Of a stretch of DNA of 64,000 nucleotides, positions 43,029 through 57,061 are shown in pieces. The position numbers were made by a program, and so were the translations under genes. How positions within the stretch are numbered: position 1 is the stretch's first letter; each line of letters starts with the position of its first letter. The notes under the pieces were generated by a model that made no database searches, was not told the origin of the DNA, and saw only the letters and a program-made list of their open reading frames with translations. The stretch is taken from contig JAUYCZ010000028.1 of the NCBI GenBank assembly GCA_030704795.1, positions 19,202 to 83,201 on the forward strand, given 5' to 3'. This DNA is from a bacterium (GTDB taxonomy: Bacteria > Patescibacteriota > Minisyncoccia > Minisyncoccales > GWA2-46-15).

Positions 43029-43057
43029 TATAGCGAGCGGGACACCGCTCGATATAT
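43029..43057. repeat. TATAGCG-hairpin-CGATATAT motif (family 4 copy)
   Basis: TATAGCGAGCGGGACACCGCTCGATATAT, 10 nt upstream of the DJ-1 ATG. A TGCTATAAT box (43070-78) follows for pbpC. Confidence 0.6.
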
Positions 43058-43109
43058 CAGTTTACTAACTGCTATAATAAAGTGAATAAGCCAATAATTC
43101 AAGGAGGAA

Positions 43110-45335
43110 ATGAAATTAAGTTTGAATAAGAAAAAATGGCTGAGTCTGGTCTTGGCCGCCCTCTTTCTGACATTCCTGGCCAGTTTTTATCTGCAGCATC
43201 AGCTCGTCTCGCTTTATCGCCAGCAAGCCTCCTCTTTGGTCGAAGACCGGGAAGGTCGTGTTATTGCCATCCGGCCCAATCGCCAGGGATATTTTAACCG
43301 TCCAGTTGTTAATCTGCCCGCTAGGATGGCCGATCTTTTAGTTAAAAAGGAAGACCGATTTTTTTACTACCATAACGGCGTCAACCCGATTAGTATTATC
43401 AAAGCCTCTTTTGGCTATTTAGGGTTGGGCCAGAGAAAGGCCTCAAGCACCATTAGCCAACAGTTGGCCAAAATTCTTTTAGGCAACGAGCTGCGGCGAA
43501 CCGGGCAGAATAAACTCAAGGAAACCCTCTACGCTTTGAGTCTGGAGATTTTCCAGCCCAAGCGAGAAATCTTGAAAATGTATGCCAACTCCATTTATTT
43601 TGGCTATCAGGCCCAAGGGATCTTTGAGGCCAGCCGTCTTTACTTTGGGACCGATCCCGAAATGCTCACCGAGGGGCAGGTCTTACAACTTTTAGCCACG
43701 ATTTCTGAACCGGCCGAAAACAATCCCGCCAGCGAGAATAATGAGAAAATCAGTTTAGCCATGGCTAAAAAATTCATTTTTTCTGAAGAAGGCTTGAGTT
43801 TCAGTCAAGCTGGCCAAGTCAGAGAGCAGATGAAAAAGGTTTCGCATGCGGACGATCTTTTCTTCGAATTAAAATCGTTTTTGACGGAGCCGAAAACAAT
43901 TTGCCAAACGACCTTAGACCGAGATCTGACCAGAAAAATCAGAGAAATAGTCCAACGGAACATCGAAAGCTTAAAGATAGAGAATGCCCGGAACGCGGCC
44001 GTGGTAGTTTTAAAGCTGCCCGAAAATGAGATTTTGAGTCTCATCGGTTCGCCCGATCCCAATTCCTTTGAGTCGGGTTATCAGATTAATATGCTGATGG
44101 AATTGCGACCCATTGGCTCTACCATTAAGCCTTTTATCTATCTCAAGGCCTTTGAAAAAGGGTTGAGGCCCTATACCCTGGTTGAGGATAGAGAGTACAA
44201 ATATATTACCGCCTTAGGTTTCCCTCTTTATCCTAAGAATTTTGACTATCAATACCGCGGCCGGGTCAAACTTAACTACGCCCTCTCCAATAGCCTGAAC
44301 GTGCCGGCGGTCAAAGTCCTGGAATACGTCGGTTTGGAGGATTTCTATCAATTCTGGGGAAAGGAAATGGGCTTTAAACCGAAGCAGCCCTGGAACAGCT
44401 ACCAGCTAGGTATTGCCTTGGGGGGTTTGGAAATGAGCCTCTGGGACCTGGCCAGATACTTTACCATCTTTCCCAACCAGGGCTGGCTGAAAGACGTTAA
44501 GGTTTTTCAGTCGGGAGACTGTTTTCAGCCAAAGCCAGAAACAACCAAAGAGATTGCCCAACCCGGTTTCATCCAGCTGGTCAACAAGATTCTCAATGAC
44601 CGCCAGACCGGCGTGGAACAGTTCGGCATGAAGAGCGAGCTCAATCTCTTTCAGGAAAACTATGCCCTAAAGACCGGCACTTCGCGCGATTTCAGGGACA
44701 GTTGGATTATTGGTTATACCCCCGACTTCCTGGTCGGTGTCTGGGTAGGCAATGCCGACAACTCTCCCACCGACAAGATTTCTGGCCAACAAGGCGCGGG
44801 CCTGATCTTTTCCAATATTATGGAGCTGCTCTTGAATTCCCGATACAACTCATCGAGCCTGAAGGCTCCTCAGAGCCTGAACGGCAAAAAAACTCCTTTT
44901 GACTTCAGTCTCGTCAAAGATTTCCCATCCCTCGAGGGTACTCGGGACTTTCAGTCCCTCGACTCGGCTCGGGACTTTCAGTCTGATCAGGGCCTTGATT
45001 GGGGTCTCCAGGGTGACGATTATAAGAAAACCCAAAATCTTTTATTGGCGCAAGATACTGCTTTGATATTATTGCCGCACGACGGAGATTCTTTTCTGCT
45101 CGAGCCCAATACTAAAATCATCCTGCGCGCCCGCCAGGCCGTCGACTGGTTTGTTAACAACGAGTTTATCGGTCACGGCCAGGAGCAGATTTTCATTCCC
45201 CCGACTCCCGGCAACTATCAAGTCAAAGCCCAATCCCCCACTAGTCAGGCTGAAAGTCCCGAGTATCCACGAGGGGCTGGAAGCCCCGAGCGCTCCCGAG
45301 GGGAGGAAGTTTCCATTTCTGTCCTGGGCGAGTAG
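43110..45335 (+). CDS. pbpC: Bifunctional class A penicillin-binding protein, PBP1C-type
   Basis: GT51 motifs EDRFFYYHNG and STISQQLAK. Transpeptidase motifs STIKPF, SNS and KTGTS. C-terminal BiPBP_C-like segment W.VNNEFIG...PGNYQVKA. AAGGAGG RBS. Confidence 0.85.
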   Translation: MKLSLNKKKWLSLVLAALFLTFLASFYLQHQLVSLYRQQASSLVEDREGRVIAIRPNRQGYFNRPVVNLPARMADLLVKKEDRFFYYHNGVNPISIIKASFGYLGLGQRKASSTISQQLAKILLGNELRRTGQNKLKETLYALSLEIFQPKREILKMYANSIYFGYQAQGIFEASRLYFGTDPEMLTEGQVLQLLATISEPAENNPASENNEKISLAMAKKFIFSEEGLSFSQAGQVREQMKKVSHADDLFFELKSFLTEPKTICQTTLDRDLTRKIREIVQRNIESLKIENARNAAVVVLKLPENEILSLIGSPDPNSFESGYQINMLMELRPIGSTIKPFIYLKAFEKGLRPYTLVEDREYKYITALGFPLYPKNFDYQYRGRVKLNYALSNSLNVPAVKVLEYVGLEDFYQFWGKEMGFKPKQPWNSYQLGIALGGLEMSLWDLARYFTIFPNQGWLKDVKVFQSGDCFQPKPETTKEIAQPGFIQLVNKILNDRQTGVEQFGMKSELNLFQENYALKTGTSRDFRDSWIIGYTPDFLVGVWVGNADNSPTDKISGQQGAGLIFSNIMELLLNSRYNSSSLKAPQSLNGKKTPFDFSLVKDFPSLEGTRDFQSLDSARDFQSDQGLDWGLQGDDYKKTQNLLLAQDTALILLPHDGDSFLLEPNTKIILRARQAVDWFVNNEFIGHGQEQIFIPPTPGNYQVKAQSPTSQAESPEYPRGAGSPERSRGEEVSISVLGE
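44929..44982 (+). repeat. Family-1 repeat, 2 x 27 bp tandem, in frame in pbpC
   Basis: CCCTCGAGGGTACTCGGGACTTTCAGT followed by CCCTCGACTCGGCTCGGGACTTTCAGT. These encode SLEGTRDFQ and SLDSARDFQ. Confidence 0.85.
45250..45303 (-). repeat. Family-1 repeat, 2 x 27 bp, inverted orientation, in frame in pbpC
   Basis: CTGAAAGTCCCGAGTATCCACGAGGGG matches the reverse complement of 44929-44955 at 24 of 26 positions. The second unit is more diverged. Confidence 0.85.
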
Positions 45336-45338
45336 TTT

Positions 45339-45359
45339 GTGCGAAGCTTAGCTTCGCAC
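45339..45359 (+). terminator. Hairpin after pbpC (part of the left island end)
   Basis: GTGCGAAGC-TTA-GCTTCGCAC. No T-run, followed by TTGACA (45365-70). Confidence 0.45.
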
Positions 45360-45532
45360 GATCCTTGACATTTCAATGACTTTATGAAAAACTATCGTAT
45401 CTCTCCTTGTTGGCTTTCTGGTAATAAATCTTGTTGCTAGAAAGCCGGCAAGGATGACTGGCCCGTTGGTTCCGCAAGGCGGAATACGGTCAAAAGCGAT
45501 CTTTCCCAGCCCAAGGGGCAAGGAGTAGAAAA

Positions 45533-46096
45533 ATGGGAAAAAGTAGCTTGAAAGGGAATGAACTGACTTCCCTAGTGGAACGAGCGTCAGCGCTCCAAAA
45601 AGCCAGTAGAGGGTACCGAGACGGCGCTGCTGAAAGCGCCCGGTTGGCCCTCGACGAGTTAGTCCTTCAGATTCTGCGAGACCACCTCGAACAGGTAGTC
45701 TTGCGTCTGGATCCCAGGAAGTCACAGGCTTGGGATGACTTCTACGCAGTTCTAGAAGTCGAGGCGAACTCGGTGGTTCTGCGGATGCCAGTTCCTAAAC
45801 TCAAGTCGAAAGACTCAGAGCTGGCAAACAGGATTCGGACGAAGATCGTCCGGGAGGAAGAAATGGAAGCAACAATCATTGCGGTGATACTCGTCGTAGG
45901 AGGGATTGGGTTCATCGTAAAGATGCTTCGTCAAAGAGACGACGGAAATGGGTACGACTACATCGGTTACCTTGGCGCTGATGGCAAACCTTGCGACGCA
46001 ATTGGGTTAGCACGGTTTTGTCCCACCAAGAAAGAAGCCGAGGCCGTTGCTCGAGCGTTCGGCTACAAAGTAGAACGCGAGGAGATGAAACGATGA
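45533..46096 (+). CDS. GC-rich hypothetical protein with one central TM segment (187 aa)
   Basis: AAGGAG RBS 7 nt upstream. TM segment ATIIAVILVVGGIGFIV. No motif recognised. Confidence 0.55.
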   Translation: MGKSSLKGNELTSLVERASALQKASRGYRDGAAESARLALDELVLQILRDHLEQVVLRLDPRKSQAWDDFYAVLEVEANSVVLRMPVPKLKSKDSELANRIRTKIVREEEMEATIIAVILVVGGIGFIVKMLRQRDDGNGYDYIGYLGADGKPCDAIGLARFCPTKKEAEAVARAFGYKVEREEMKR

Positions 46097-46350
46097 AGAT
46101 CATCTTAAACGGTTTGAACGTCACTCTCGCTGAAGTTTTGACTAGACTTCAGGAAGAGGGCGCGCCTCGCTTCGCGGTAGCCCTATCGCGAAGTGATTAC
46201 GCCAAGAATCCCAACGAAAGAAAGCCAGGTAACGCCGTGATCGTTATGACCGCTGCTGAATTCCAGAAGTTAGAAGAAGAGCAACGACATACGGTCGAAA
46301 TGGTATTGGCAGCTCAACAGTTGGGTGCCCAAGTTGTTTTCCGTAGCTAG
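46093..46350 (+). CDS. GC-rich hypothetical protein (85 aa)
   Basis: ATGA start/stop overlap with the upstream ORF, and GAGGAG upstream. A terminator follows. Confidence 0.55.
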   Translation: MKIILNGLNVTLAEVLTRLQEEGAPRFAVALSRSDYAKNPNERKPGNAVIVMTAAEFQKLEEEQRHTVEMVLAAQQLGAQVVFRS

Positions 46351-46362
46351 TAGAGCTTAAAG

Positions 46363-46405
46363 GAGACTCAACGCCTTAGAAAAAGGAGTTGAGTCTTTTT
46401 ATTTT
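46363..46405 (+). terminator. Rho-independent terminator
   Basis: GACTCAAC (46365-72) / GTTGAGTC (46388-95), then TTTTTATTTT. Confidence 0.65.
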
Positions 46406-46430
46406 GGCGAGTCGCCAAGGACTGCGGCAT

Positions 46431-46544
46431 AAGCTGATTAAACAGCTATTGTTTTACGACAAAATAGCTCCCGGCCAATATCAAATCAAAGCCCAATCCC
46501 CCACCGCCCAGTCGGAAGAAATCACGATTTTTCTCAACCAGTAA
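46431..46544 (+). pseudogene. Orphan remnant of an alternative/ancestral pbpC 3' end
   Basis: Translates to KLIKQLLFYDKIAPGQYQIKAQSPTAQSEEITIFLNQ*. Shares the identical 19-nt TCAAAGCCCAATCCCCCAC with 45223-45241. No start codon or upstream ORF. Confidence 0.75.
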
Positions 46545-46552
46545 ATAAATCA

Positions 46553-46574
46553 GCACCCGAGATTTCTCGAGTGC
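46553..46574. terminator. Hairpin terminator (presumed original pbpC terminator, also serves the minus-strand small-ORF operon)
   Basis: GCACCCGAG-ATTT-CTCGAGTGC. A T-rich tract follows on the minus strand. Confidence 0.55.
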
Positions 46575-46598
46575 CGATTCGATTTGGCGTCGGTTGCG

Positions 46599-46739
46599 TT
46601 ATTCTTCGATGAAAAAGAGCGACGTGAAACCGGCGGCGAGCAACCCTTCGGTGGGGACGACATGAAAGATGCCGTTGATGATGAGCCCCAGCGCGAGCGC
46701 TCCGTACACGATCTTGCGCAACTGTCGATTGGTCAACAT
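46599..46739 (-). CDS. Small hydrophobic protein (46 aa), not in the ORF track
   Basis: GGAGGTG RBS 7 nt before the ATG. Sequence MLTNRQLRKIVYGALALGLIINGIFHVVPTEGLLAAGFTSLFFIEE. A terminator follows. Confidence 0.5.
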   Translation of the reverse strand: MLTNRQLRKIVYGALALGLIINGIFHVVPTEGLLAAGFTSLFFIEE

Positions 46740-46781
46740 GGCCAATCACCTCCTTTGAAACTCAGATTGTCGTTCGTTCGG

Positions 46782-46946
46782 CTAGCGAGTCGGCGGCGCG
46801 CCCGGTCGACAATGGGCGCAACGAAAAAGGTGCTTGTGTCGGCGTCCGGGCTTTGCCAGACAAGTAAACCCATGTTTACACATCACGCTACACTTTCCAT
46901 TGTCTCGGGACCGCCGCGGCCGATTCTTCCGCAGAAAATCGAACAT
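46782..46946 (-). CDS. Small basic Cys-rich (zinc-ribbon-like) protein (54 aa), not in the ORF track
   Basis: AAGGAGG 5 nt before the ATG. Sequence MFDFLRKNRPRRSRDNGKCSVMCKHGFTCLAKPGRRHKHLFRCAHCRPGAPPTR. Consensus promoter upstream. Confidence 0.45.
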   Translation of the reverse strand: MFDFLRKNRPRRSRDNGKCSVMCKHGFTCLAKPGRRHKHLFRCAHCRPGAPPTR

Positions 46947-46981
46947 CCATACCTCCTTGGTCTGGGATACGTACTGGATAA

Positions 46982-47009
46982 ATTATAGCACTAATAATAT
47001 AAATGTCAA
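46982..47009 (-). promoter_or_regulatory. Consensus sigma70-type promoter
   Basis: Minus strand TTGACA (47009-04), 16 nt, TGCTATAAT (TATAAT 46987-82). Confidence 0.65.
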
Positions 47010-47047
47010 GAGTTTGTGCGAAGCGAAATTTCGCCTAGCACAAATCA
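47001..47047. repeat. Right island end, an imperfect inverted copy of 45334-45373
   Basis: Shares AAATGTCAAG, GTGCGAAGC and GCACAAA blocks with the reverse complement of the left end. AGTTTGTGCGAAGC (47011-24) is also a direct repeat of 45334-47. Confidence 0.6.
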
Positions 47048-47049
47048 AT

Positions 47050-47081
47050 CAAAAAGCACACATCATGGATCGATGTGTGCT
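47050..47081 (-). terminator. Rho-independent terminator
   Basis: AGCACACATC/GATGTGTGCT stem, followed on the minus strand by TTTTTGATT. Confidence 0.7.
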
Positions 47082-47096
47082 CTGTTTGAAGGGCGA

Positions 47097-47381
47097 TCAC
47101 TTCACTGGGAGGAACGTGATTACCACGAGGAGGGTGCCACCGATCAAGCAGGCGCCCGCCAGGAAGTACCAGACGAGTGACGTCTGATGGTAAGCGGTAG
47201 CATAATTTGGCGCCGCTTTTGGCGTCCCTCGTCCACTTGCCTCTGATGCGCCACGCTGATACTCATCTGGTCCATAGCGGTGGATGTCCGTTTCCGCTTT
47301 TCGGCTTTCTTTGCGCCCTTCGCGCCAAAAGAAAACGCCTACCAGAAAAAGGATCGCCCCGATAATTTGCAATGTTAGCAT
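47097..47381 (-). CDS. GC-rich two-TM small protein (94 aa)
   Basis: ATG at 47381 preceded by AAGGAG. TM segments LQIIGAILFLVGVFFW and LVWYFLAGACLIGGTLLVVITFL. Confidence 0.55.
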   Translation of the reverse strand: MLTLQIIGAILFLVGVFFWREGRKESRKAETDIHRYGPDEYQRGASEASGRGTPKAAPNYATAYHQTSLVWYFLAGACLIGGTLLVVITFLPVK

Positions 47382-47420
47382 TGCACACTCCTTTCCTTTC
47401 TGCGGTTTATCCGCATAAAA

Positions 47421-47449
47421 ATTATACAATACTTAATTAAATTAGTCAA
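47421..47449 (-). promoter_or_regulatory. Near-consensus sigma70-type promoter
   Basis: Minus strand TTGACT (47449-44), 17 nt, TGTATAAT (TATAAT 47426-21), then leader hairpin TGCGG-ATAAA-CCGCA. Confidence 0.65.
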
Positions 47450-47506
47450 TACATCATCAAAAATCTCCGATTAGTATCGGGAATATTAGGCTCAGAGAAT
47501 AATTGA

Positions 47507-50500
47507 TTATCTCACGACAAAGTAGCTCCCGGCGGTGCGGCCGAAGTTCTCCGGGAAATACATTTCATAAGCCCGGGCGGGCAGATGAATGAAGTTGCCT
47601 TTGGCCATGGCTCGGACGTAGTAATCGAACTCGTAAACGCCGGGTTCCAGGTTTTCGGTAAAGAGGAAAGCCTGATCATCCCTTAATTCCTTAAAGCTGG
47701 GCTGGAATTCAGAATTGGTTAATTCTTTTTCTTGAAGCCGAAGCGATTTCTGTTCCGTGGCCAAGTCCAGATTGACGATTTCCAGGCCGGCCGGGATATA
47801 ATCTTCCACGGCGACAAAATGCCGGGATTTGGGAACCGTGATTTGAAGATTGACCCTCAGAACGTCGCCCGTTTTGGCTTCCACAACGGGTTTTTCATTC
47901 TTGGCGTCGTCCAGCCGGTAGAACGAGCGGGTAATGGAGAAGCCTTCGTCCCGCGGCGCGATCTGGTCGGCGGGCAGATAGTATTTCAGAACCAAGTCAT
48001 AGTAGAAGCCATTGTTAGAACTATTTAAGTCTTCCTTGATAAATTTGACCAGATTATTCTCATTGAATTTCAGTTCTTTTAAAGGAATCAATTTTTTGAA
48101 CTGATCAAGAATGGTGCGGGGTTCAAAGCGAAAGTTATCGGCCGGATTATCATTGACCTGGAGGCTCAGGGAAAAGTCTGATTCGGTTTCCTTTTTCCAG
48201 TTAAGATAATCGGTAAAGGCATCCACGACCTGCAGAGTATTATTGGTCGAGCCCCAGGCGCCATCTTTTTCGCGGGAATTCAATATCCAGCGGACCACTT
48301 TGTCGAGGAAAGGATTTTCGCTTTGATCTTTGCTCAAGGCTTTAAGATAGAGGGCGGTGTCCTTGATTGGTGTTTCGTAATAATACCAAAGCCGGTTTTG
48401 GTTGGGTTCCAGAAAAGCGCCCCGGGAATCGATATCGACCCGATTGTTCAGAGTTTCAAAAATTTTCTGTTTCAAGGCGACGGGAAAATCACCGCTTCTT
48501 TCGGACATTAAGATGGCCAGATAAGCCAAGGAAGTATTGCTGCTTCTTTCCTTAATAAAGAGATCGTTCCTGGCTATTTCCGTGACTTTCTGCTTCAAGA
48601 CTGTTCGGGAAGGCCAGTCTGGCAGTTGAGACAAGGCCGAAGCGGCTAGAATGACGTTATTTTCATCGCGGTAGAGGTAGTCCTGGCTGGTGATTTCTTG
48701 ATTAAGATAGTTGGCGGCCCTCTCCAGGCTATTTTGATTAATCCGGAAGCCGGCCAGAGAAAGATTCTGGAGCGCTTCCACGGCTGACAAGGTGGCGTAG
48801 AAGCTAGAGCCGCCGCCTCTCCAGAAAGCAAAGCCGCCATCATCTCTCTGGTTGTTGTAAAGCTGAGCCAGGCCAATCTCCACCAATTCATCAATCGAGT
48901 ATTCCCGACCGTCGTATTTAACTTTCTCCAGCTGGAATTTGTCGCCCAGATTAGGCAGGTTCAATCCTTTTTTGACAATGGCAATAGCTTTGAGCCGGGC
49001 AGCAATCTGTTCTGAACCCGCATAAGGATATTGGATGAGATAGTTTAAGGCGTCCGAGAGAAAGACGGCCAGGGTGGCCGAGCTATTGACCCTCAAGTCC
49101 CCTTTTTCTTTAACAACGTTTTCCGGCAAAAAAACATATTCTTTGATAACCTTGTCCGTGGCGTAACTGGCGGTCGAGGTCGTCTCATAGGTATTATTGG
49201 GCGTAATCTTGATATATTGAATGACGGTGTCTTCAAGGTCTCCATTCTTGGCCGAAAGGACAAAACGATGTTCCCCGCTCTCCATCTGTTCTGGGGCCTG
49301 CGCCTCAAAGTAAACCGTTTGGGTTTCGTTCTTGTCGATTCTGATTTGTTTTTTGGCGTTGTCGCCTTTCAGTAAAAGAGTCGGACTCTCAAAAGAAACC
49401 TCGAGTTTTTGATTCTCTGAGCTTTGGTTGAAGATTTTGGCGCCGACGAAGAATTGATCACCCGGCACAATAAAACGGGGTTTGAGAGGCACGATCATCA
49501 ATTCCTTTTTCGTCATGAATTCTTGATAGTTGATGCCCAATTTAGTGTCTTTGGTGACTCCCAATGTTTCGGCCTGCCAGGTGGTTAAGTTATCCGGTAA
49601 GGCAAAACGAATCTGGGCTCGACCATCCTCGCCCGTCTTTAGTGATCCTTCCCAGAGAGCTGTTTCCCGGAAGACGCCCCGAGCCCTTTTACTTAAAGCC
49701 TCGTCGGATCGGCCGCTGCCACCCTTGGTTTTAGAGATTTCCGTTTCCACCAAGATATTTTTCAGGTTTGAAGAGGCGGAAACGGTTAAAGGAAAACCGC
49801 CATAGAAAAAAACTAAGGGATTTTTTTGGGGATTACCCTTGAGGGCCAGGACGCTTAAGTCAACCACCGCCACGGAGAGTTCGCTGGAAACCCCTTTTCC
49901 CTGGGCGTCTTTAGCCTCAATATCCAGGATTACTTCTTCTCCGGGCAGGAAAGAGGTTTTATTGGGCTTGACCGAGATCTCTAATTCCTTGGTTTTGGTG
50001 TTGATTTTGAACTCCGCTTTTCCGAACTTAATCTCCGGTGACGAAGATTGCAGCAAGACCGAGACAAAGACATTGGGGACATATTCTTCCTTAATCTCAA
50101 AATTAAACTTGTAAAGACTGCCTTCGATCTCTTTGATCTGGTAGTCAAAGATCCGACCTCGTTCAATGGAAATCAAGGCCTTGGCATTTTTAAAGGGGGA
50201 TTTAATAATCAAACTGCCCTGCTGGCCTACTTCTAGATCGGTTTTCTCCGGTTTGACCTCGAGATTGGTTCCTTCCGTGGGTCGGACAGAAACCTGGCCT
50301 TCGCCCCAGACATAAAGACCGTAGGTTGAGGTGACCAGGTTTTCTTTTGAGTCTCGGGCAAAAACCTCGGCCTCATACTCCCCCTCCCGAGGCATTTTTA
50401 GAGGTTGAATGTATTCGCCCTGAGAATTGGTGGCAAAACTATATTGATTTACTTCTTCCCTTCTTTTCTCCCATTTATAGGAGTAGCCGCCCGTCGCCTC

Positions 50501-53500
50501 TTGTCTTTTGGCATAGACCCAATTAACTTTGTAAAGTCGCAGATTAACATTACTAACTTTCTGGGGTTGGCCCTGGAGATCCAGAGACTTAATCTTGAGA
50601 TTGACTTCCTCGTTTTTTCCGACAAAATATTTGTCCGAGTTGATTCCAAGGTAAAACTCTCCGGCGTGCAAGATAAAAGATTTCTGGGCGGAAACGCTTT
50701 GTCCTTGGGGATTGGTAATGGTAACATCAACGACAACGATTTTACTTTGCGGGCTTTCATTGGCACTCGAAACCTTGGCGATATCGAGGGGTTGGGAGAT
50801 TCTCGCTTGGCCCCGAACTAACTCTGCTTTTCCCCGGAACAAGAATCGGTCACCGTAATAGTAGGGTTGCCAGTAATCTCTTTCCGGGCCAAATCTCAAA
50901 TATTCATCTGAGTAACGATCAAAATAATAGTTCTGGCTGCTAAAGGAATAACTAATCTCGCCTCCCTCCAGGGGTACGCCAAAGTAATAATTGGCATCGA
51001 CCGTCAGATTAACCACGTCTTTAGAAACATATTCTCCCTTGTCGCTGCTTAATTTGACTTCAAAAGGAGAAGGTTGGTATTCTTGAACGTCAACAAAAGT
51101 ACAATTAGAGTCGTCCGCGCAAATCCGGTATTCTCCGAGAGGGGCGTTCTTGTCAAGTAAGAGCTTGGCGTTGAAGGTACCGAATTCGTTCACCGCTAAA
51201 CTCTGGTTCAGCATTTCCTCACTCCGTGAGTTATAAGCTTTGAGATTGATGTTTTTGTCCCGGTAGATTTCATAATTTCCATCGTAGCCCAGACGGAAAA
51301 CCCCTTTAATAAAGACTTCTTGGGCCGGCCGATAGATGGGCTTGTCCGTGTAGAGATAAATCTTTTTGGCGGTCGCGGCACTGCTTACCCAATCCAGCTG
51401 GTTTTCCCAGGGCGGGATAACCGTGCTGTCTTCGCCGTGGCTGACGATCGCCCCCTGCAGATTATCCACGACCTTAGTTAAAGCCACTCCTTCTTCATTG
51501 CTGAAGAAGGTGCCGACGGAATTAAGATTTTTTCCCTGAAAAAGTCTGACTTTGGCTTGATTAATCGGAGCCAGGCTGCTCAAGTCCGTAATCCAATAGA
51601 GATTGCGCAATTCCGCCAGACTCTCTTCGGTCAGGGGCTGGGCCGAGCCATAGAAAGCTGTTTCGGGCCGAATCTTCTTTTCGGCCACCGCTAAATTGGT
51701 GACGTTGAGATAGGTTCTTTCAAAGACCGGTCTTTGGCTTTGATAACCACTCTCGCTCCAGTGAGTGGTTTTGTAATCGGGGTGAGAGAAAGTTAGAACA
51801 TAATAACCCAGAGGATTTTCAAAATAATCCTTAATGTCGACTCTAAAGTAGTTTTTTCCCCAGAACTTATGCGGCAACTCAATGGTTTTGGTCGTTCGTT
51901 CTTGGCAACCGCCCATGGTTTGGGGTGGATCAAATAAATTGGGTTTTTGTCCGAGATAATAGAGGAAGCCGAGAGAGTCGAGTTTGCAAATATCCATCTG
52001 GACATATGCCATGTTTTGGGCCGCATAGGCCAGCTTAGTTTTTGTCGGAGAAGTGACATTATAGGTTTTCTGAAAATGATAGAAATTCAGATCTTCCGGA
52101 GGTATTGGCCCCGTTGTGAAGTTCAATGACGGCTCGGTTTTCTGGCCAAAGAGATCCTCGGCTTTAAGTTGGAGCTGATAGTGAGATCGGGGCATTAAGC
52201 CATAGCCAATATTGGTATGGAATTCATTCAGCCCGCATTTTTCTCCAGAGTAAAAATAGTTGACCCGATAAGAAGGCCACCAATAGTTTAGGGTGTAATC
52301 TAGATCAGCCTTCAGGTATTCTTTTAAGTCTTTTGTCTCGGGAGCCAAGAGCGGCGAATTAGAACAGATAACCAACTCTTTGACGCTGGCTTCCTCGGCG
52401 TTGTTGGCCGGAGAGGTGCTTAAGATTTTGAGCTGAGGATAGGCGACAACGTTCTGCCGGATCGGCTCCCGGTTAATAGTTAGGCCCCGGGAGTTGACGA
52501 TTCTTTCAAAAACAATTTCGAAAGTTTCGCCCAAACCGATCTGGTCCGCTTTAAAGGAAATGATCAAGGCCTTCCGGTTAATTATTTTTTCACAATCGTA
52601 CTCGCTATAAATGGCTTCTTCCTCGTCCCGACACTTTTCTCCATAGACGATGTTTTCTAATTTAGGAACGTTGATGCGCGATTGGTCCAAATTAACCTCT
52701 TCATAGAAGCTGACCACCAGTTTGCCCTGGGGATCAAAAAAACCAGGGTCAGCATAACTCGTTCTCTCTGAACTGGCGGAGACGCTCTGGACAATATTGG
52801 GGATTGAGACATCGGTCTGCCCGCCTTCTTCCAGGGCGATGTCCCCTTCCAGCGGATAAGCCCTGTTGATTCTCAAAGAATAACTTTGGTTAAAGTTCCA
52901 GAACCTTTCTCGGCCAAAACGATCTTTCTGGTTATAAACCAAAATAGTCGAGAGGTTTTCTTCCTTTTGGTCTTTGGCCGAAGAGGGTTTTGTCCGGGCA
53001 AAAGGCCTTAAGAGAAAATTGCCCCAGTCTTTTAAAGTCTTGAGGACGGCTTTCTGGCCGGCGCCGTTTTCGTTCTGGTATTCGGCAATAAAAGAAATGG
53101 GTCGGCCCGTCGCGTTATCGATTAAGGAAATCTCTCCTCGGGTTTTGTCCAGGTTAACCGGCTGATTAAAGCGAATGGCCACGGCTTGGTCATAAAGAAT
53201 CTGTTCTCGGGAAATATCAACGTACCTTAGTCTTCTGGTAATAAAATCATTAGTGACGGGTTTGACCTCTAGGCCATCCAGAGAGACAAAGCCCGCTTTG
53301 ATCCTGACTTGGTAGTTTGAAGCTCTTAAAAGTCTCTCCTGGGGAATAAACTGAAGATTTCGAGTGGTAATCCATTTAAAACGGCCCGGGGTTTGGGGAC
53401 TGATTTCTACGGGTACGTTTTTTTCTTCTAAATAGCCCAGTGTTGTCAAGGGAACCATCGGTCGGTTGAAGACAATGGTAATCTCAGAGTTTTCCGGCGT

Positions 53501-53980
53501 TTCTGATCCTTGGCTCGGAAAGACGCCGATAATCTCGGGGTTCTCAACGGCCAAAAAGTCTTGGCGGATCTTTCCTTCGCCTCCGGCCAGGGCCAATTCC
53601 ACCTCATAGTGTCGGTTTAAGTTTAGTTCCGACTTTGGCTTAAAATAGACTATGTTTTCATTCTCTGGACTCACCGCCGACAAAAGCGAGGCCAAGACAT
53701 TCGCCCTTTTGCTTTCCTGTCCGAGCCACTTTCCTTCGATTTCCGGCTGAAAGCGAATATTTTTTTGAGCCGAGCTTCTATCTACATTCGGCGGCAAGAA
53801 GACCGGAATGGCCGCCGATTGAGAAACTTTTTCCGGAACCAAGCGATAACTCTCCTGATAGGTTTGGGGCAGCTTTTTTGGCGCCAAATAGAAATAAAAA
53901 ATAATAGTTCCTATAACTAAAACCGCTAAAAGAATGGTTTTTTTCTGTTGTCTCAGAAATTCTTGAATTTGGGACGCCAT
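47507..53980 (-). CDS. Bacterial alpha-2-macroglobulin family protein (2157 aa), thioester Cys absent
   Basis: N-terminal TM anchor and long MG-domain-like repeats. LIQYPYAGSEQ sits where the family has YPYGCxEQ (49007-49021), about 500 aa from the C-terminus, as in characterised homologs. Confidence 0.8.
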   Translation of the reverse strand: MASQIQEFLRQQKKTILLAVLVIGTIIFYFYLAPKKLPQTYQESYRLVPEKVSQSAAIPVFLPPNVDRSSAQKNIRFQPEIEGKWLGQESKRANVLASLLSAVSPENENIVYFKPKSELNLNRHYEVELALAGGEGKIRQDFLAVENPEIIGVFPSQGSETPENSEITIVFNRPMVPLTTLGYLEEKNVPVEISPQTPGRFKWITTRNLQFIPQERLLRASNYQVRIKAGFVSLDGLEVKPVTNDFITRRLRYVDISREQILYDQAVAIRFNQPVNLDKTRGEISLIDNATGRPISFIAEYQNENGAGQKAVLKTLKDWGNFLLRPFARTKPSSAKDQKEENLSTILVYNQKDRFGRERFWNFNQSYSLRINRAYPLEGDIALEEGGQTDVSIPNIVQSVSASSERTSYADPGFFDPQGKLVVSFYEEVNLDQSRINVPKLENIVYGEKCRDEEEAIYSEYDCEKIINRKALIISFKADQIGLGETFEIVFERIVNSRGLTINREPIRQNVVAYPQLKILSTSPANNAEEASVKELVICSNSPLLAPETKDLKEYLKADLDYTLNYWWPSYRVNYFYSGEKCGLNEFHTNIGYGLMPRSHYQLQLKAEDLFGQKTEPSLNFTTGPIPPEDLNFYHFQKTYNVTSPTKTKLAYAAQNMAYVQMDICKLDSLGFLYYLGQKPNLFDPPQTMGGCQERTTKTIELPHKFWGKNYFRVDIKDYFENPLGYYVLTFSHPDYKTTHWSESGYQSQRPVFERTYLNVTNLAVAEKKIRPETAFYGSAQPLTEESLAELRNLYWITDLSSLAPINQAKVRLFQGKNLNSVGTFFSNEEGVALTKVVDNLQGAIVSHGEDSTVIPPWENQLDWVSSAATAKKIYLYTDKPIYRPAQEVFIKGVFRLGYDGNYEIYRDKNINLKAYNSRSEEMLNQSLAVNEFGTFNAKLLLDKNAPLGEYRICADDSNCTFVDVQEYQPSPFEVKLSSDKGEYVSKDVVNLTVDANYYFGVPLEGGEISYSFSSQNYYFDRYSDEYLRFGPERDYWQPYYYGDRFLFRGKAELVRGQARISQPLDIAKVSSANESPQSKIVVVDVTITNPQGQSVSAQKSFILHAGEFYLGINSDKYFVGKNEEVNLKIKSLDLQGQPQKVSNVNLRLYKVNWVYAKRQEATGGYSYKWEKRREEVNQYSFATNSQGEYIQPLKMPREGEYEAEVFARDSKENLVTSTYGLYVWGEGQVSVRPTEGTNLEVKPEKTDLEVGQQGSLIIKSPFKNAKALISIERGRIFDYQIKEIEGSLYKFNFEIKEEYVPNVFVSVLLQSSSPEIKFGKAEFKINTKTKELEISVKPNKTSFLPGEEVILDIEAKDAQGKGVSSELSVAVVDLSVLALKGNPQKNPLVFFYGGFPLTVSASSNLKNILVETEISKTKGGSGRSDEALSKRARGVFRETALWEGSLKTGEDGRAQIRFALPDNLTTWQAETLGVTKDTKLGINYQEFMTKKELMIVPLKPRFIVPGDQFFVGAKIFNQSSENQKLEVSFESPTLLLKGDNAKKQIRIDKNETQTVYFEAQAPEQMESGEHRFVLSAKNGDLEDTVIQYIKITPNNTYETTSTASYATDKVIKEYVFLPENVVKEKGDLRVNSSATLAVFLSDALNYLIQYPYAGSEQIAARLKAIAIVKKGLNLPNLGDKFQLEKVKYDGREYSIDELVEIGLAQLYNNQRDDGGFAFWRGGGSSFYATLSAVEALQNLSLAGFRINQNSLERAANYLNQEITSQDYLYRDENNVILAASALSQLPDWPSRTVLKQKVTEIARNDLFIKERSSNTSLAYLAILMSERSGDFPVALKQKIFETLNNRVDIDSRGAFLEPNQNRLWYYYETPIKDTALYLKALSKDQSENPFLDKVVRWILNSREKDGAWGSTNNTLQVVDAFTDYLNWKKETESDFSLSLQVNDNPADNFRFEPRTILDQFKKLIPLKELKFNENNLVKFIKEDLNSSNNGFYYDLVLKYYLPADQIAPRDEGFSITRSFYRLDDAKNEKPVVEAKTGDVLRVNLQITVPKSRHFVAVEDYIPAGLEIVNLDLATEQKSLRLQEKELTNSEFQPSFKELRDDQAFLFTENLEPGVYEFDYYVRAMAKGNFIHLPARAYEMYFPENFGRTAGSYFVVR

Positions 53981-53999
53981 AATTTTTAAAAATTGAAAA

Positions 54000-55004
54000 T
54001 TATAGATTAAGGTATTTTACCTTTTTAATGTTGTGTTCTTCAAGGGTCCGGCTGAAAAGAGTCTGACCCGCGGGGGTTGAAAGATAGTACCAGTAGAGGC
54101 TGTCGGTCGGGTAAATGGCGGCGACAATACTGTCGAGGCCGGGATTGGCAATCGGTCCCGGCGGCAGGCCGGCATATCTATAAGTATTGTACGGCGAATC
54201 AATTTTGGTTTGTTCGTAGGTGACTCGGTCCGGCTTTGTCCCCAAAGCATAGATGATCGTCGCGTCCACTTGGAGCCGCATGCCGACTCTTAATCTTTTC
54301 CAGAGAATACCGGAAACCAATTTTTTCTCTTCCAGGGTTTTCACTTCTTCTTCTATGAGAGAGGCCATGGTAATAATCTCAAAAATAGTTTTTTTCTGTT
54401 TTTCGATTTCCGTTCGCAGTTCGGGCGTCAACTTATCGCCAAGATTTTTCAGCATATTGGCGATCAGATCTTCGGCCGTTCCCCCATTTTCCAGCTCGTA
54501 GGTGTCCGGAAAGAGATAGCCTTCCAGGCCGGCTCTGGCCGGCTTGTCTTTCAGAAAGCCGAATTCCGCCGAGTAGTCGCGACTGGCGGCGGTCAAAAAC
54601 TGCTGCCTCTTGAACAAGCCCCGGACATTTAAGTAAGAATCGATTTCTTTCAGGTTCCAGCCCTCGGGAATGGTAACGGTTTGTTTGACGACATCGCCCC
54701 GAATCAACTTCTTCGCGATTCCCAGCGGCGTCATTTCCGAAGAAAGATAATAATCGCCGGCCTGAAGGTGCTTGACGCTGTTCAAAAAAATAACGGCGGC
54801 GTCGAAAAAAAGCTGGTTCTTCACTAGTTTCTCTTTTTCTAAATTAGCAGCGATTTCAAAAGCTCCTTCACCCCTTCTTACCGAAAAAAGCTTTTCTTGG
54901 CTGTCGCCGATTTTGGCCGGAGAGTTAACCTCGTTAACAACTATCCCGACAGCGCTTCCGATCGCAACGCCGACAATTAAAATTTCTAGGATTCTTTTTT
55001 TCAT
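54000..55004 (-). CDS. mltG: Endolytic murein transglycosylase MltG (YceG-like)
   Basis: N-terminal TM segment, LASLIEEE and SPYNTYRYAGLPPGPIANPG. Confidence 0.85.
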   Translation of the reverse strand: MKKRILEILIVGVAIGSAVGIVVNEVNSPAKIGDSQEKLFSVRRGEGAFEIAANLEKEKLVKNQLFFDAAVIFLNSVKHLQAGDYYLSSEMTPLGIAKKLIRGDVVKQTVTIPEGWNLKEIDSYLNVRGLFKRQQFLTAASRDYSAEFGFLKDKPARAGLEGYLFPDTYELENGGTAEDLIANMLKNLGDKLTPELRTEIEKQKKTIFEIITMASLIEEEVKTLEEKKLVSGILWKRLRVGMRLQVDATIIYALGTKPDRVTYEQTKIDSPYNTYRYAGLPPGPIANPGLDSIVAAIYPTDSLYWYYLSTPAGQTLFSRTLEEHNIKKVKYLNL

Positions 55005-55009
55005 AATAA

Positions 55010-55029
55010 GTCGGACATCGCATGTCCGA
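55010..55029. repeat. Second copy of hairpin GTCGGACATCGCATGTCCGA
   Basis: 20 of 20 nt identical to 25420-25439. Lies between the pcm stop and the mltG start. Confidence 0.85.
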
Positions 55030-55656
55030 TCATTTATTTATTAAAGGTACAAAAATGAATCCTGGATATTCGCGTTTTTCGAATTCGTTTTCGCTCTTTT
55101 TGGTGAATAACCAAATTGAGTTTTGGATCGGCGTCACGATCCGGCCGCCGATTTTCAGTTGCTTTTTCCAAGCCCGGGGCAGTTTTTCAGTCTCATCTTG
55201 AAAGCTAGCCGAAACAAGAATCTTGTCGTACGGCGCTTCTTTCTCGTACCCCTTTGATCCGTCAGCACAAATAATATTGACTATCCCCTTTTGGACAAAG
55301 CCATATTTATCGACATTTTTTATGCCGAATTGGGCTAACTCCGGCACGATTTCCATTCCGATAACTTTGCCCTTTAGCCCGACAATCTCGGCTAGTAATG
55401 CTGTCGTATAGCCGGACCCCGAGCCGATGTCCAATATTTTTTGGCCCGGCTCCGGTTGCAGCAATTCCAGCATAAAAACCACCACCAAGGGTTGCGAAAT
55501 AGTTTGTTCGTGTCCGATGGTCAGAGCTTCGTCGAGCTCGGCCAAGTCCTTGAGATCTTCCGGAAGGAAATCAACCCGTTTGATTTTGCGGAAAGCTTCA
55601 ATTATCCGCGGCGTTTTAAGCCAGTCCTGGGAAATAAGCGAGTCAATTAAATCCAT
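55030..55656 (-). CDS. pcm: Protein-L-isoaspartate O-methyltransferase
   Basis: TISQPLVV and the SAM motif ILDIGSGSGYTTALLA. Confidence 0.85.
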   Translation of the reverse strand: MDLIDSLISQDWLKTPRIIEAFRKIKRVDFLPEDLKDLAELDEALTIGHEQTISQPLVVVFMLELLQPEPGQKILDIGSGSGYTTALLAEIVGLKGKVIGMEIVPELAQFGIKNVDKYGFVQKGIVNIICADGSKGYEKEAPYDKILVSASFQDETEKLPRAWKKQLKIGGRIVTPIQNSIWLFTKKSENEFEKREYPGFIFVPLINK

Positions 55657-55664
55657 TAGTCGTT

Positions 55665-55690
55665 GGTATGCTGCTACGTAGCAGCATACC
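55665..55690. repeat. Perfect 26-nt palindrome spanning the def stop codon
   Basis: GGTATGCTGCTAC/GTAGCAGCATACC. It encodes the def tail RYAAT*. Confidence 0.8.
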
Positions 55691-56207
55691 GGGAGTTAAG
55701 TTTTCTTTTTACTCTTAATTTTTCAAAAAAGCCTAATCTCTCAAAAAACAATATGCCATCAAGGTGGTCGATTTCGTGCTGGAAGATACGGGCCAGAAAT
55801 CCCTCCGCTTTAAATTCGATTTCCTGACCCTCTTCATTAATGGCTTTTACCTCAACCCATGTCGGCCTTTTTATCTCTAACCAAAGCCCGGGCAGGCTCA
55901 GGCAGCCTTCTTTGCCAATCTCCTTTTCCTTGCTCAATTTCAAAATCCTGGGGTTGATAAATCCCTTAAGACCTTTTTTAGTCAAAACAACAATTACTCT
56001 TTTTAAAATTCCGACCTGATTGCCTGCCAACCCTACTCCCTTGACTTTGCCTTCTCCATTCGCCCGCTGGCTCAGGACAGGTTTTTCTTCCGTCATAGTT
56101 TCTTTCATTTGCAGAATCAATTCTTTGATTTCCGGAGTCATCTTTTCAATCTCCTCGGCTTTTTGCTTTAAAATCGAGTCGGGATAGATTCTAATTTCCA
56201 GTTTCAT
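55674..56207 (-). CDS. def: Peptide deformylase
   Basis: Motifs GVGLAGNQVG, EGCLSLPG and HEIDHLDG. ATG at 56207. Confidence 0.9.
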   Translation of the reverse strand: MKLEIRIYPDSILKQKAEEIEKMTPEIKELILQMKETMTEEKPVLSQRANGEGKVKGVGLAGNQVGILKRVIVVLTKKGLKGFINPRILKLSKEKEIGKEGCLSLPGLWLEIKRPTWVEVKAINEEGQEIEFKAEGFLARIFQHEIDHLDGILFFERLGFFEKLRVKRKLNSRYAAT

Positions 56208-56242
56208 TTTACTTTTTTGCAAAGCGAAAAAGCTAAGCTTGC

Positions 56243-57061
56243 TTATTTAATAAATTGTCTTCCCCACCAGAAGGTAACTATATAAATAGCCGGCAGGGCA
56301 ACAACACTTATATACCATACTGCGCGCCCAAATCTTGGACCGCCGAATTCGGCTAGGCGCACGAGAAGCACGAAAGACAAAAACCAGCCGACGAGGAGCC
56401 CGGCGCCGGGCCACTCCGGATGTACAAGTTCTCTGCCTCCGCCGACTTTATACCATTTTACCCACCCGCCCCACTTCATAATAAAAACGTGGAGAAGGAT
56501 GAGAATAAAGGCAAGGCGTACGCCCCAGTATTGCCACTGCCACCACCTTTCTCTACCGATGGCCGCCATGGCACGGTCATTAGAGATGAAAAAAATAACA
56601 ACCAGAACGATGGTAGCCGCGAGACCAAAAACAAAAGGCCAATTAAGCGTTCCTAAAGATCCCGATAAGGGAAATTTTGACGGCAGAAAAAAAAGAGAGA
56701 CAATTCCATGGGTAAGAGCAAGAAAAAAAGCGGCGATTCCCAGTTCTTTTCGGTATTGAACATAGCGATCAGGGAAAGAAAAAAAGCGGCTTAATGGGCC
56801 GATGAGAAGAACAATGCCCAGAAGCACTGCGGCGACACCGGCAAAAACTTTGTTGGCGATATAAAGATCGTAATAGCCGCGGCGGAAAAAAAGATATACT
56901 GATAAGATCGCAAACAGAACCGCGGCCGCCACCAATGCCGCGCCGTACTGCTGAAATTGATATTTCCAATTTCGAGCGAAGCGAGAAACAAGGTTCTCGC
57001 CGAAGGCAAGGTTCTTATTTCGAGCGAAGCGAGAAACAAAGTTCTTATTTCGTAGATTCAC
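56243..57061 (-). CDS. Ferric-reductase-like / MsrQ (YedZ)-like heme-binding membrane protein, start uncertain
   Basis: Six TM segments with conserved His (LALTHGIVSLFF, ILLHVFIM). There is no internal ATG. GTG at about 57061 or the track start at 57130 are the options. Confidence 0.45.
   Translation of the reverse strand: MNLRNKNFVSRFARNKNLAFGENLVSRFARNWKYQFQQYGAALVAAAVLFAILSVYLFFRRGYYDLYIANKVFAGVAAVLLGIVLLIGPLSRFFSFPDRYVQYRKELGIAAFFLALTHGIVSLFFLPSKFPLSGSLGTLNWPFVFGLAATIVLVVIFFISNDRAMAAIGRERWWQWQYWGVRLAFILILLHVFIMKWGGWVKWYKVGGGRELVHPEWPGAGLLVGWFLSFVLLVRLAEFGGPRFGRAVWYISVVALPAIYIVTFWWGRQFIK
56969..57045. repeat. Family-3 repeat, two 29-bp copies with a 48-bp period, in frame in the CDS
   Basis: ATTTCGAGCGAAGCGAGAAACAAGGTTCT (56969-97) and ATTTCGAGCGAAGCGAGAAACAAAGTTCT (57017-45). 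They encode VSRFARN twice. Confidence 0.85.

Follow-up and report, generated by a model that had tools for sequence, protein, structure and literature searches.

In the stretch of DNA analysed here, a window of 64,000 nt on contig JAUYCZ010000028.1 (public locus tags Q8N65_02730 ff.) of a Patescibacteria (Candidate Phyla Radiation, CPR) metagenome-assembled genome (MAG), the spacer between the convergent genes pbpC and alpha-2-macroglobulin (A2M) holds five small open reading frames (ORF-A to ORF-E). This spacer, henceforth called the islet, raises the question of whether its genes form one system or were brought together from different sources. In the original prediction, a mosaic island bounded by inverted, promoter-bearing ends was described and put forward as a candidate for an undescribed membrane-acting toxin/immunity or phage-exclusion system. 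According to the comparisons reported below, the islet is probably a recombination-built patchwork of three independent, self-expressing cassettes (A-B, C-D, and E) of accessory character, with no demonstrated five-gene system. The mosaic character of the island was borne out, as the three cassettes have separate histories.

The spacer as a lineage-specific insertion

The distance between the stop codons of pbpC and A2M, which is 2171 nt here, was surveyed in 15 CPR relatives carrying the same convergent gene pair. It ranged from −17 to 22 nt in eight of them, from 122 to 293 nt in four, and from 567 to 712 nt in three. Because the spacer of most relatives thus measures −17 to 22 nt, the islet is, judging from these distances, a real lineage-specific insertion. 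None of the five ORFs was encoded in the 26 related genome loci examined, and neither the islet DNA nor the copies of its ends had a further match in the window or in the related loci L001–L027. The Logan assembly of the same sequencing run (SRR13727536), which may share its reads with the MAG assembly, is 100% identical to the window over 43030–56997 (13,968 nt).

The pbpC/A2M tail-to-tail junction seems to be a recurrent landing site. Each of the three spacers of 567–712 nt holds one gene, unrelated to the islet ORFs; these single-gene insertions are located at 1834–2400 of L004, 12218–12897 of L015, and 12082–12793 of L017, and their products are 149, 214, and 217 aa long. The annotated neighbours of the locus have housekeeping functions (ClpB-like ATPase, L10, L7/L12, DJ-1/PfpI, peptide deformylase, a methyltransferase, and YceG), and the islet is therefore not a piece of a larger mobile element. 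Searches of phage and plasmid DNA with the islet gave no match, no tRNA was found near it, and an Rfam scan of 44800–47700 returned nothing approaching any gathering score. The island had also been called GC-rich. This was right in direction (49–58% GC in the ORFs vs. 47–49% in the flanking genes) and overstated in extent, as the shift is modest and GC content at third codon positions lies near the host mean; a strongly GC-rich or compositionally foreign island was rejected on these grounds.

The C-D cassette and its counterpart in another sample

ORF-D has a cluster-mate (P0004) on a 2.5-kb Logan contig from another sample, henceforth called L028. This contig carries, in order, a pbpC tail, a hairpin, ORF-D, ORF-C, a promoter, 21 nt, and the A2M stop, and is devoid of ORF-A, ORF-B, ORF-E, and the palindrome described further below. 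The flanking genes of the two loci are strongly diverged, with ~70% protein identity for both A2M and pbpC and saturated synonymous sites (proportion of synonymous differences, pS, 0.74 and 0.71, respectively). The spacer itself is split into two parts of unequal age: identity is 92.9% over 46468–46832 (365 nt) and 75.3% over 46833–47010 (Fisher p = 2e-8). The younger block comprises a pbpC tail (P', see below; pS 0.24 vs. L028), the terminator, ORF-D, and the 3' end of ORF-C. Its divergence is far below that of the flanks, which points to a much more recent shared ancestry than that of the genomes and to lateral exchange with an L028-like lineage. As in a recombination scar, the segment is closer to a putative donor lineage than the background is (92.9% identity vs. 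a flank pS of 0.71–0.74), and at least the block 46468–46832 is, on this comparison, laterally exchanged. This lateral spread is the only hint, and an indirect one, of a selfish or beneficial accessory role of C-D.

Both genes of the cassette are located on the − strand. ORF-C (46782–46946) encodes a 54-aa product with an isoelectric point (pI) of 11.5, five Cys and four His. Its frame is kept in L028, where none of the five Cys and four His is lost and the indels are in frame, at a pS of 0.52 and a proportion of nonsynonymous differences (pN) of 0.074. The low pN relative to pS, together with the retained Cys and His residues, argues for a real gene under purifying selection, even though ORF-C is uncalled in public annotations; its product is probably a basic Cys5His4 zinc-binding protein. 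ORF-D (46599–46739) encodes a hydrophobic membrane peptide of 46 aa with a grand average of hydropathicity (GRAVY) of 0.89 and one hydrophobic segment, and is likewise kept in frame in L028 (pS 0.057, pN 0.03). Transcription would start from a sigma-70 promoter at 46982–47009 (− strand; TTGACA, 16 nt, TGnTATAAT; 12/12 consensus positions), whose −35, TG, and −10 are conserved in L028, and would end at a hairpin at 46549–46580 (−23.7 kcal/mol on the − strand), which in L028 is also present, directly 3' of the pbpC stop. The stretch around this terminator (46545–46598) matches L028 in 53 of 54 alignment columns.

A 134-aa antisense ORF over C and D was considered as a real gene and rejected, since in L028 its start falls out of frame and the encoded protein diverges strongly where ORF-C is conserved. 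Scans of JGI metagenomes with peptide patterns of ORF-C and ORF-D gave no relatives. The extremities of the L028 contig (1–19 and 2508–2526) correspond to the Nextera adapter (CTGTCTCTTATACACATCT and its complement) and are library artefacts; the interior is unaffected.

A joint of gene stubs in the centre of the islet

Between A-B and C-D, at 46448–46544, a joint is located that had escaped the original prediction; it was found as two direct repeats in a repeat search. In the first repeat (D1), part of the resident pbpC tail (45205–45254) recurs at 46468–46517 with 82% identity; in the second (D2), the A2M 3' end (47506–47533) recurs at 46448–46475 with 86% identity (24/28). The copies represent two gene stubs, designated M' and P'. 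M' (46448–46475, − strand) is an A2M 3'-end stub of 28 nt, which comprises the stop position and eight codons, the stop being mutated. P' (46468–46544, + strand) is a pbpC 3' stub consisting of the last 77 nt or ~25 codons of the gene, with 87% identity to L028. The two stubs overlap at the octamer CTCCCGGC (46468–46475). To its right, the sequence encodes '...PGQYQIKAQSPTAQSEEITIFLNQ*', a pbpC C-terminus. To its left, 20 nt match the A2M tail (score reached in 17 of 2000 shuffles) and have no similarity to the sequence upstream in pbpC; the notion that M' is merely diverged pbpC was rejected for this reason. The resident counterparts are the A2M tail M (47506–47533) and the pbpC tail P, i.e., the last ~130 nt of the gene (45205–45335, + strand).

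In the relatives, the tails of A2M and pbpC face each other across the spacer, so the fused stubs constitute a novel joint at a microhomology. The final 30 nt of P' are identical to the L028 pbpC tail at 28 positions and to the resident tail at roughly 15 (hand count). The M'/P' junction is likely an illegitimate-recombination joint at an 8-nt microhomology.

The A-B cassette

ORF-A (45533–46096, + strand) and ORF-B (46093–46350, + strand) are coupled by an ATGA overlap of the ORF-B start with the ORF-A stop. ORF-A encodes 187 aa with a helical N-terminal part, a transmembrane (TM) segment at ~110–133, and a C-terminal domain of ~55 aa, and its frame is the best of six in the codon model. A word-indexed search of 5.8e9 proteins with ORF-A returned only itself. 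ORF-B encodes a soluble protein of 85 aa, for which a full HMMER search yielded one true homologue (P0009, 85% identity) on a 614-bp ENA contig, L029. The other HMMER matches of ORF-B, a 6742-aa repetitive protein and two translated tandem-repeat 'proteins', were rejected as repeat or compositional artefacts upon reading their sequences.

L029 holds ORF-B together with the C-terminal ~62–63 codons of ORF-A, joined by the same ATGA overlap, and is 88% identical to 45908–46376. The ratio pN/pS against this contig is 0.275 for ORF-B and 0.59 for the ORF-A fragment. Downstream, the cassette ends in an intrinsic terminator (46364–46406, + strand), a hairpin with 14-bp arms followed by TTTTTATTTT (−23.4 kcal/mol, z = −5.6). 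Homology to L029 breaks at 46376, inside this hairpin, and is followed in L029 by 166 nt of unrelated AT-rich sequence, which suggests a further recombination breakpoint at the terminator hairpin. In this AT-rich part (449–614 of L029), a consensus-like promoter (TTGACA, 17 nt, TACAAT) is present and the second terminator arm is missing.

ORF-A is preceded by a structured leader (45374–45532, + strand) that the original prediction omits in its main part, a 24-bp hairpin; a second hairpin and a third pairing with the Shine-Dalgarno (SD) region follow. The minimum free energy of the 160-nt leader is −65.8 kcal/mol (z = −6.3). The stem of the 24-bp hairpin (45404–45454) consists of 19 Watson–Crick and five G·U pairs on the + strand, and these five would be A·C mismatches on the − strand. 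That the G·U pairing works on the + strand alone speaks for a transcribed RNA structure, which would start a few nt past the predicted start of the weak left promoter. The pattern further implies selection on the RNA fold, which may serve as a 5' stabiliser or as an RNase III site.

The two promoter/operator modules

The island had been described as bounded by imperfect inverted repeats at 45334–45373 and 47001–47047, with an inward-facing TTGACA and a shared 14-nt direct repeat. Both sequences are located at these positions with TTGACA facing inward, and their inverted similarity is confirmed: the left end (45341–45373) matches the reverse complement of the right end at 27 of 34 positions with a score of 21, against a maximum of 16 in 12,746 other comparisons within the window. 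Within 64 kb there are exactly two occurrences of the 14-mer AGTTTGTGCGAAGC (45334 and 47011). The end motif is also not a common module present elsewhere, as GTGCGAAGC...GCNNNGCAC was found only at these two sites in the window. What failed is their role as boundaries, given that the right end sits between the C-D and E units and ORF-E lies beyond it.

The left module (45334–45373, + strand) begins with the 14-mer in the stop codon of pbpC. It continues with a palindrome of the form GTGCGAAGC-N3-GCTTCGCAC (45339–45359; perfect 9-bp stem, hairpin of −16.5 kcal/mol) and CTTGACATTT, in which the −35 element TTGACA (45364–45369) faces ORF-A. As noted earlier for the + strand pair, the −10 that follows is weak (AAAACT at 17-nt spacing). 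The right module (47001–47047, − strand) repeats the left one in inverted orientation with 79% identity and consists of AAATGTCAAG, i.e., the −35 of C-D, the 14-mer, and a palindrome at 47013–47044 (−17.1 kcal/mol). It is a composite, since its AAATGTCAAG half is conserved in L028 and its palindrome half is absent from there; homology to L028 ends at 47011, the first base of the right 14-mer.

From these alignments, the ends are two diverged copies of a 34-nt unit of palindrome plus CTTGACATTT (−35), one heading A-B and the other heading C-D, and not the termini of an element. The 14-nt direct repeat arises because the module is palindromic, and, taken by itself, an exact repeat of this length has an E-value of ~1.4 in a comparison with the entire window. 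The shared palindrome may serve both cassettes as an operator, by which A-B and C-D once were or still are co-regulated. When the modules were compared with the termini of an insertion sequence (IS) or a miniature inverted-repeat transposable element (MITE), the inverted similarity of 27/34 was present, but the right copy is internal, the 14-nt repeat overlaps the inverted repeat instead of flanking it, and no transposase-like product occurs among the five. As for an attachment-site (att) element, the exact 14-nt direct repeat is there, and no recombinase, integrase, or transposase was found among the five products or the scanned or annotated neighbours, the rest of the window not having been scanned.

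Open reading frames, expression signals, and ORF-E

All five predicted ORFs are present and preceded by correctly spaced SD sequences (AAGGAG, GAGGAG, AAGGAGGT, AAGGAGGTGA, and AAGGAG), and their predicted properties agree with the initial description (one TM segment in A; pI 11.5 and five Cys in C; a hydrophobic D; two TM segments in E). The arrangement in three transcription units with three terminators likewise stands, each terminator being a hairpin of −19.5 to −23.7 kcal/mol followed by a T-run. The two − strand promoters are near-consensus as claimed (12/12 with TG for C-D, 11/12 for E), and just five sites in the entire window reach 11/12 or more. Transcription starts would be expected at ~45399–45401, immediately ahead of the 24-bp hairpin, and at ~46975 and ~47414 on the − strand. 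ORF-A, ORF-B, ORF-C, and ORF-D are conserved as frames elsewhere and, by this measure, are real genes, with A-B and C-D each selected as a pair. On the basis of model predictions, A, D, and E would be small membrane proteins and B a small soluble protein.

The ORF-E unit (− strand) consists of a promoter at 47421–47449 (TTGACT, 17 nt, TATAAT), ORF-E at 47097–47381 (94 aa; a hydrophilic loop and two TM segments; the codon model ranks this frame first of six), and an intrinsic terminator at 47045–47082 (−19.5 kcal/mol, with UUUUUGAUUGA behind it). Among 5.8e9 proteins, the word-indexed search retrieved ORF-E's own cluster and nothing else. DUF3185 (PF11381) was rejected as a family assignment, since the match scored 17.8 bits vs. 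the Pfam cut-off of 25.3 and only the first TM segment was aligned. In the public annotation, ORF-E starts at an upstream TTG (47097–47429, 110 aa); the SD-supported ATG yields 94 aa.

Searches for a function

No product had been recognised at the outset, and this did not change: scans of all five against Pfam, PHROGs, PADLOC, and NCBIfam gave nothing above threshold, PADLOC-DB contained 0 families matching the five proteins at E ≤ 1, and PDB sequence searches with B and C remained at chance level. Scans of viral contigs for A, B, C+D, and E gave no relatives. A Foldseek search of PDB with the ORF-B model had a best E-value of 0.7 and was disregarded.

The islet was also compared with specific types of systems. 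As a type I toxin–antitoxin (TA) system, ORF-D (46 aa) would qualify as the small hydrophobic toxin; no promoter-like site was found on the + strand over 46545–46800 in a scan restricted to the consensus, which a weak promoter may escape, and there was no Rfam match. As a type II TA operon, A-B has the ATGA overlap, which is kept in L029, and a palindrome upstream of the −35, but ORF-A is a 187-aa membrane protein, the −10 is weak, and neither gene matches a toxin or antitoxin family in Pfam, NCBIfam, or PADLOC. The C-D pair does not read as a bacteriocin with its immunity protein: a small membrane protein, ORF-D, is present downstream of ORF-C, and ORF-C has no family match and no obvious leader by eye, with no transporter among the annotated neighbours. 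The proposed toxin/immunity or phage-exclusion system thus received no specific evidence, there being no PADLOC match, no antisense promoter over ORF-D, and no family for ORF-C.

Assembly of the islet and alternative explanations

The islet would have been assembled by recombination of DNA from related strains at a permissive tail-to-tail junction. The M'/P' joint would have formed when two alleles of this locus were joined illegitimately at the microhomology, either by homology-facilitated illegitimate recombination (HFIR) after DNA uptake or by unequal crossing-over, so that an allele bearing A-B was stacked next to an allele bearing C-D (and E) and gene stubs were left behind. No transposase or integrase would be needed. 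As the cassettes carry their own SD sites and a terminator, and C-D and E consensus-grade promoters, they would be expressible wherever they landed, in the manner of prophage morons. We regard the islet genes as strain-variable accessory or possibly selfish genes and not as parts of the pbpC/A2M machinery. What the comparisons establish is the insertion, the stubs with their joint, the conservation and separate occurrence of C-D and A-B, the blocks of unequal age, and the doubled promoter module; the mechanism of recombination, the direction of transfer, co-regulation via the palindrome, and any biochemical role are inferred.

Several points weigh against this account. Each cassette has one comparator on a short contig (2.5 kb and 0.6 kb), so the order and number of events are not reconstructible. 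The M' stub comprises 28 nt only, the inverted 34-nt module is left unexplained by illegitimate joining alone, and the promoter of A-B consists of a −35 and a weak −10 only. ORF-E is devoid of any comparative support, and single-sequence AlphaFold2 models of ORF-A and ORF-B (predicted local distance difference test, pLDDT, 39 and 57) were too poor for use. Furthermore, the same order of parts would result if an ancestral D-C/A-B arrangement had been duplicated in tandem and had then undergone deletions, or if a circular intermediate had integrated.

That the five genes form one undescribed system (membrane-acting toxin/immunity or phage exclusion) delimited by the inverted ends appears doubtful at best. 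It would account for the fact that all genes are small, encode membrane-associated or metal-binding products, and have their own expression signals, that A-B and C-D share the homologous palindrome/−35 module suggestive of co-regulation, that the C-D block spreads laterally as addiction and immunity genes often do, and that A-B is coupled by ATGA behind a palindromic operator as in type II TA operons. The homologue searches, however, show that the set is not conserved: C-D stands without A, B, and E in L028, A-B is followed by an unrelated downstream flank in L029, and E is confined to its own cluster. Neither PADLOC, Pfam, NCBIfam, nor PHROGs provided a match, E lies outside the 'ends', and the gene stubs between A-B and C-D show that recombination brought these units together. 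A chimeric metagenome assembly of strain variants and/or spurious ORFs could come to mind as well, given that the source is a MAG, that strain variants with different cassettes at the locus exist, that ORF-C is uncalled publicly, and that ORF-E has no homologues. We consider such an artefact extremely improbable: over 13,968 nt, the two assemblies show not a single difference, although one set of reads may underlie both; reading frames A to D persist in other samples with pN < pS; and a well-spaced SD sequence precedes each of the five ORFs. The 8-nt microhomology at the joint is also shorter than typical assembler k-mers.

The remaining alternatives concern the mode of assembly. The segment 45334–47024 could be a mobile cassette that integrated as a circle of ~1.68 kb by recombination within the 14-nt core AGTTTGTGCGAAGC, catalysed by a recombinase acting in trans in a manner likened to att-site, Xer/dif-module, or integron-cassette recombination; as its target, the circle would have used the pbpC stop with the palindrome 47013–47044 behind it, and the circle junction would join ...TATAAATGTCAAG to AGTTTGTGCGAAGCTTAGCTTCGCAC.... 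A single integration of this kind would account at once for both repeats, direct and inverted, and for the M'|P' joint. The segment is flanked by exact 14-nt direct repeats, L028 homology ends exactly at the right copy and the left copy begins in the pbpC stop codon, closing 45348–47010 recreates a symmetric divergent promoter (AAATGTCAAG, hairpin, CTTGACATTT), and a 10-nt perfect inverted repeat flanks the reconstructed joint. We nevertheless deem this unlikely, as no recombinase, integrase, or transposase was found in the part of the window that was scanned or annotated, the motif occurs nowhere else in 64 kb, the 14-nt repeat alone is of little significance at its E-value, the collections searched held no empty site or second integrated copy, and the A-B copy in L029 ends at the terminator with no att-like site. 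The more far-reaching idea that the palindrome/−35 modules and the 14-nt repeat are the sites of a new, promoter-carrying circular mini-cassette of ~1.7 kb in Patescibacteria, moved by a host recombinase and spread by C-D as addiction or immunity cargo, would be a long shot. Even less probable is a tandem duplication of an ancestral locus (pbpC - D<-C<-[divergent promoter]->A->B - A2M) followed by reciprocal deletions at the palindrome. The M|P joint would be a classic novel junction of such an event, and the pairs P/P', M/M', and left/right module have similar identities (79–86%), but P' is much nearer to the pbpC tail of L028 than to the resident one, which points to an external donor, at least three events would be needed, and L028 has C-D without A-B or the palindrome.

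Comparison with known systems

HFIR has been proposed for the 'sequential displacement' of modules in type VI secretion system (T6SS) arrays of Vibrio and for orphaned 3' regions at Rhs loci (PMC5361080), and natural competence has been demonstrated in cultivated Saccharibacteria (PMC10633639), so HFIR would be plausible in this phylum. As in Vibrio T6SS/Rhs displacement, the 3' stub of a displaced gene (P') persists beside a small gene downstream of it, another lineage has a similar stub and cassette, modules are stacked without a dedicated recombinase, and the joint lies at a short microhomology. In contrast to it, the islet genes are not effector/immunity pairs of a known secretion system, the locus is a pbpC/A2M tail-to-tail junction in CPR, stubs from both convergent flanks are fused, and the mechanism is deduced from one joint.

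The islet shares with prophage morons and ORFan islets the small, self-contained units with their own terminator (and promoters for C-D and E), the position between conserved genes, a slightly atypical composition, and products without known function; unlike morons, it has no prophage context, and its cassettes are swapped between chromosomal alleles of the same locus. Likeness to type I and type II TA systems extends to the 46-aa hydrophobic ORF-D (type I toxins), the coupling of A-B behind a palindrome (type II), and lateral spread, but no antisense promoter lies opposite ORF-D, toxin/antitoxin homology is lacking, and ORF-A is a 187-aa membrane protein. With dif/pdif modules and integron cassettes, the locus has in common a cargo of 1–2 kb, short, partly palindromic inverted and direct repeats, and the lack of an own recombinase; it differs in that neither an XerC/D 11-6-11 site nor an attC was recognised, the sites are known once, the cargo has its own promoters, and no integrase is nearby. 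Bacterial A2M and PbpC have been described as a linked pair for proteobacteria (PMC5764988, PMC3735191). The linkage is conserved across the CPR relatives examined, where the genes are convergent and not co-directional as in proteobacteria. Nothing ties the small genes of the islet, absent from the 26 related loci, functionally to A2M/PbpC.

Patescibacteria have tiny genomes, in which the gain and exchange of accessory genes are poorly documented, and the locus provides a base-level record of such events in the form of stubs, blocks of unequal age, and a joint at a microhomology. Small, self-expressing cassettes are seen here to be exchanged by diverged lineages at a conserved tail-to-tail junction, apparently with no mobility genes dedicated to the task. 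The A-B and C-D cassettes, the latter with its Cys5His4 protein, are pairs of small proteins without detectable relatives in the searched libraries; they are under purifying selection and are candidates for functional tests. As it stands, the locus reveals no new defence or toxin system and represents an accessory islet of a known general kind with new small-protein families.

Flanking genes and further features of the window

The left flank is formed by the gene of a pbpC-type class A penicillin-binding protein (43110–45335, + strand; 741 aa) with the Pfam domains Transgly, Transpeptidase, and BiPBP_C, whose nearest relatives are all from CPR MAGs with an identity of at most 59%. On the right, the alpha-2-macroglobulin family gene (47507–53980, − strand; 2157 aa) has the Pfam domains MG2, A2M_BRD, A2M, and bMG10, as detected on an identical product. 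Within pbpC, two in-frame insertions are located at 44929–44986 and 45245–45302, which are mutually inverted and 76–85% complementary. Each consists of two tandem 27-nt units with the core CTCGGGACTTTCAGYC; together they flank a 258-nt stretch of the BiPBP_C-domain coding region, and the L028 pbpC has neither. They may represent a MITE-like or hairpin-forming element that is tolerated in coding sequence. Two more consensus-grade sigma-70 promoters, both with an extended −10 TG, are located on the + strand of the window at 411–440 (11/12) and 1816–1845 (12/12).

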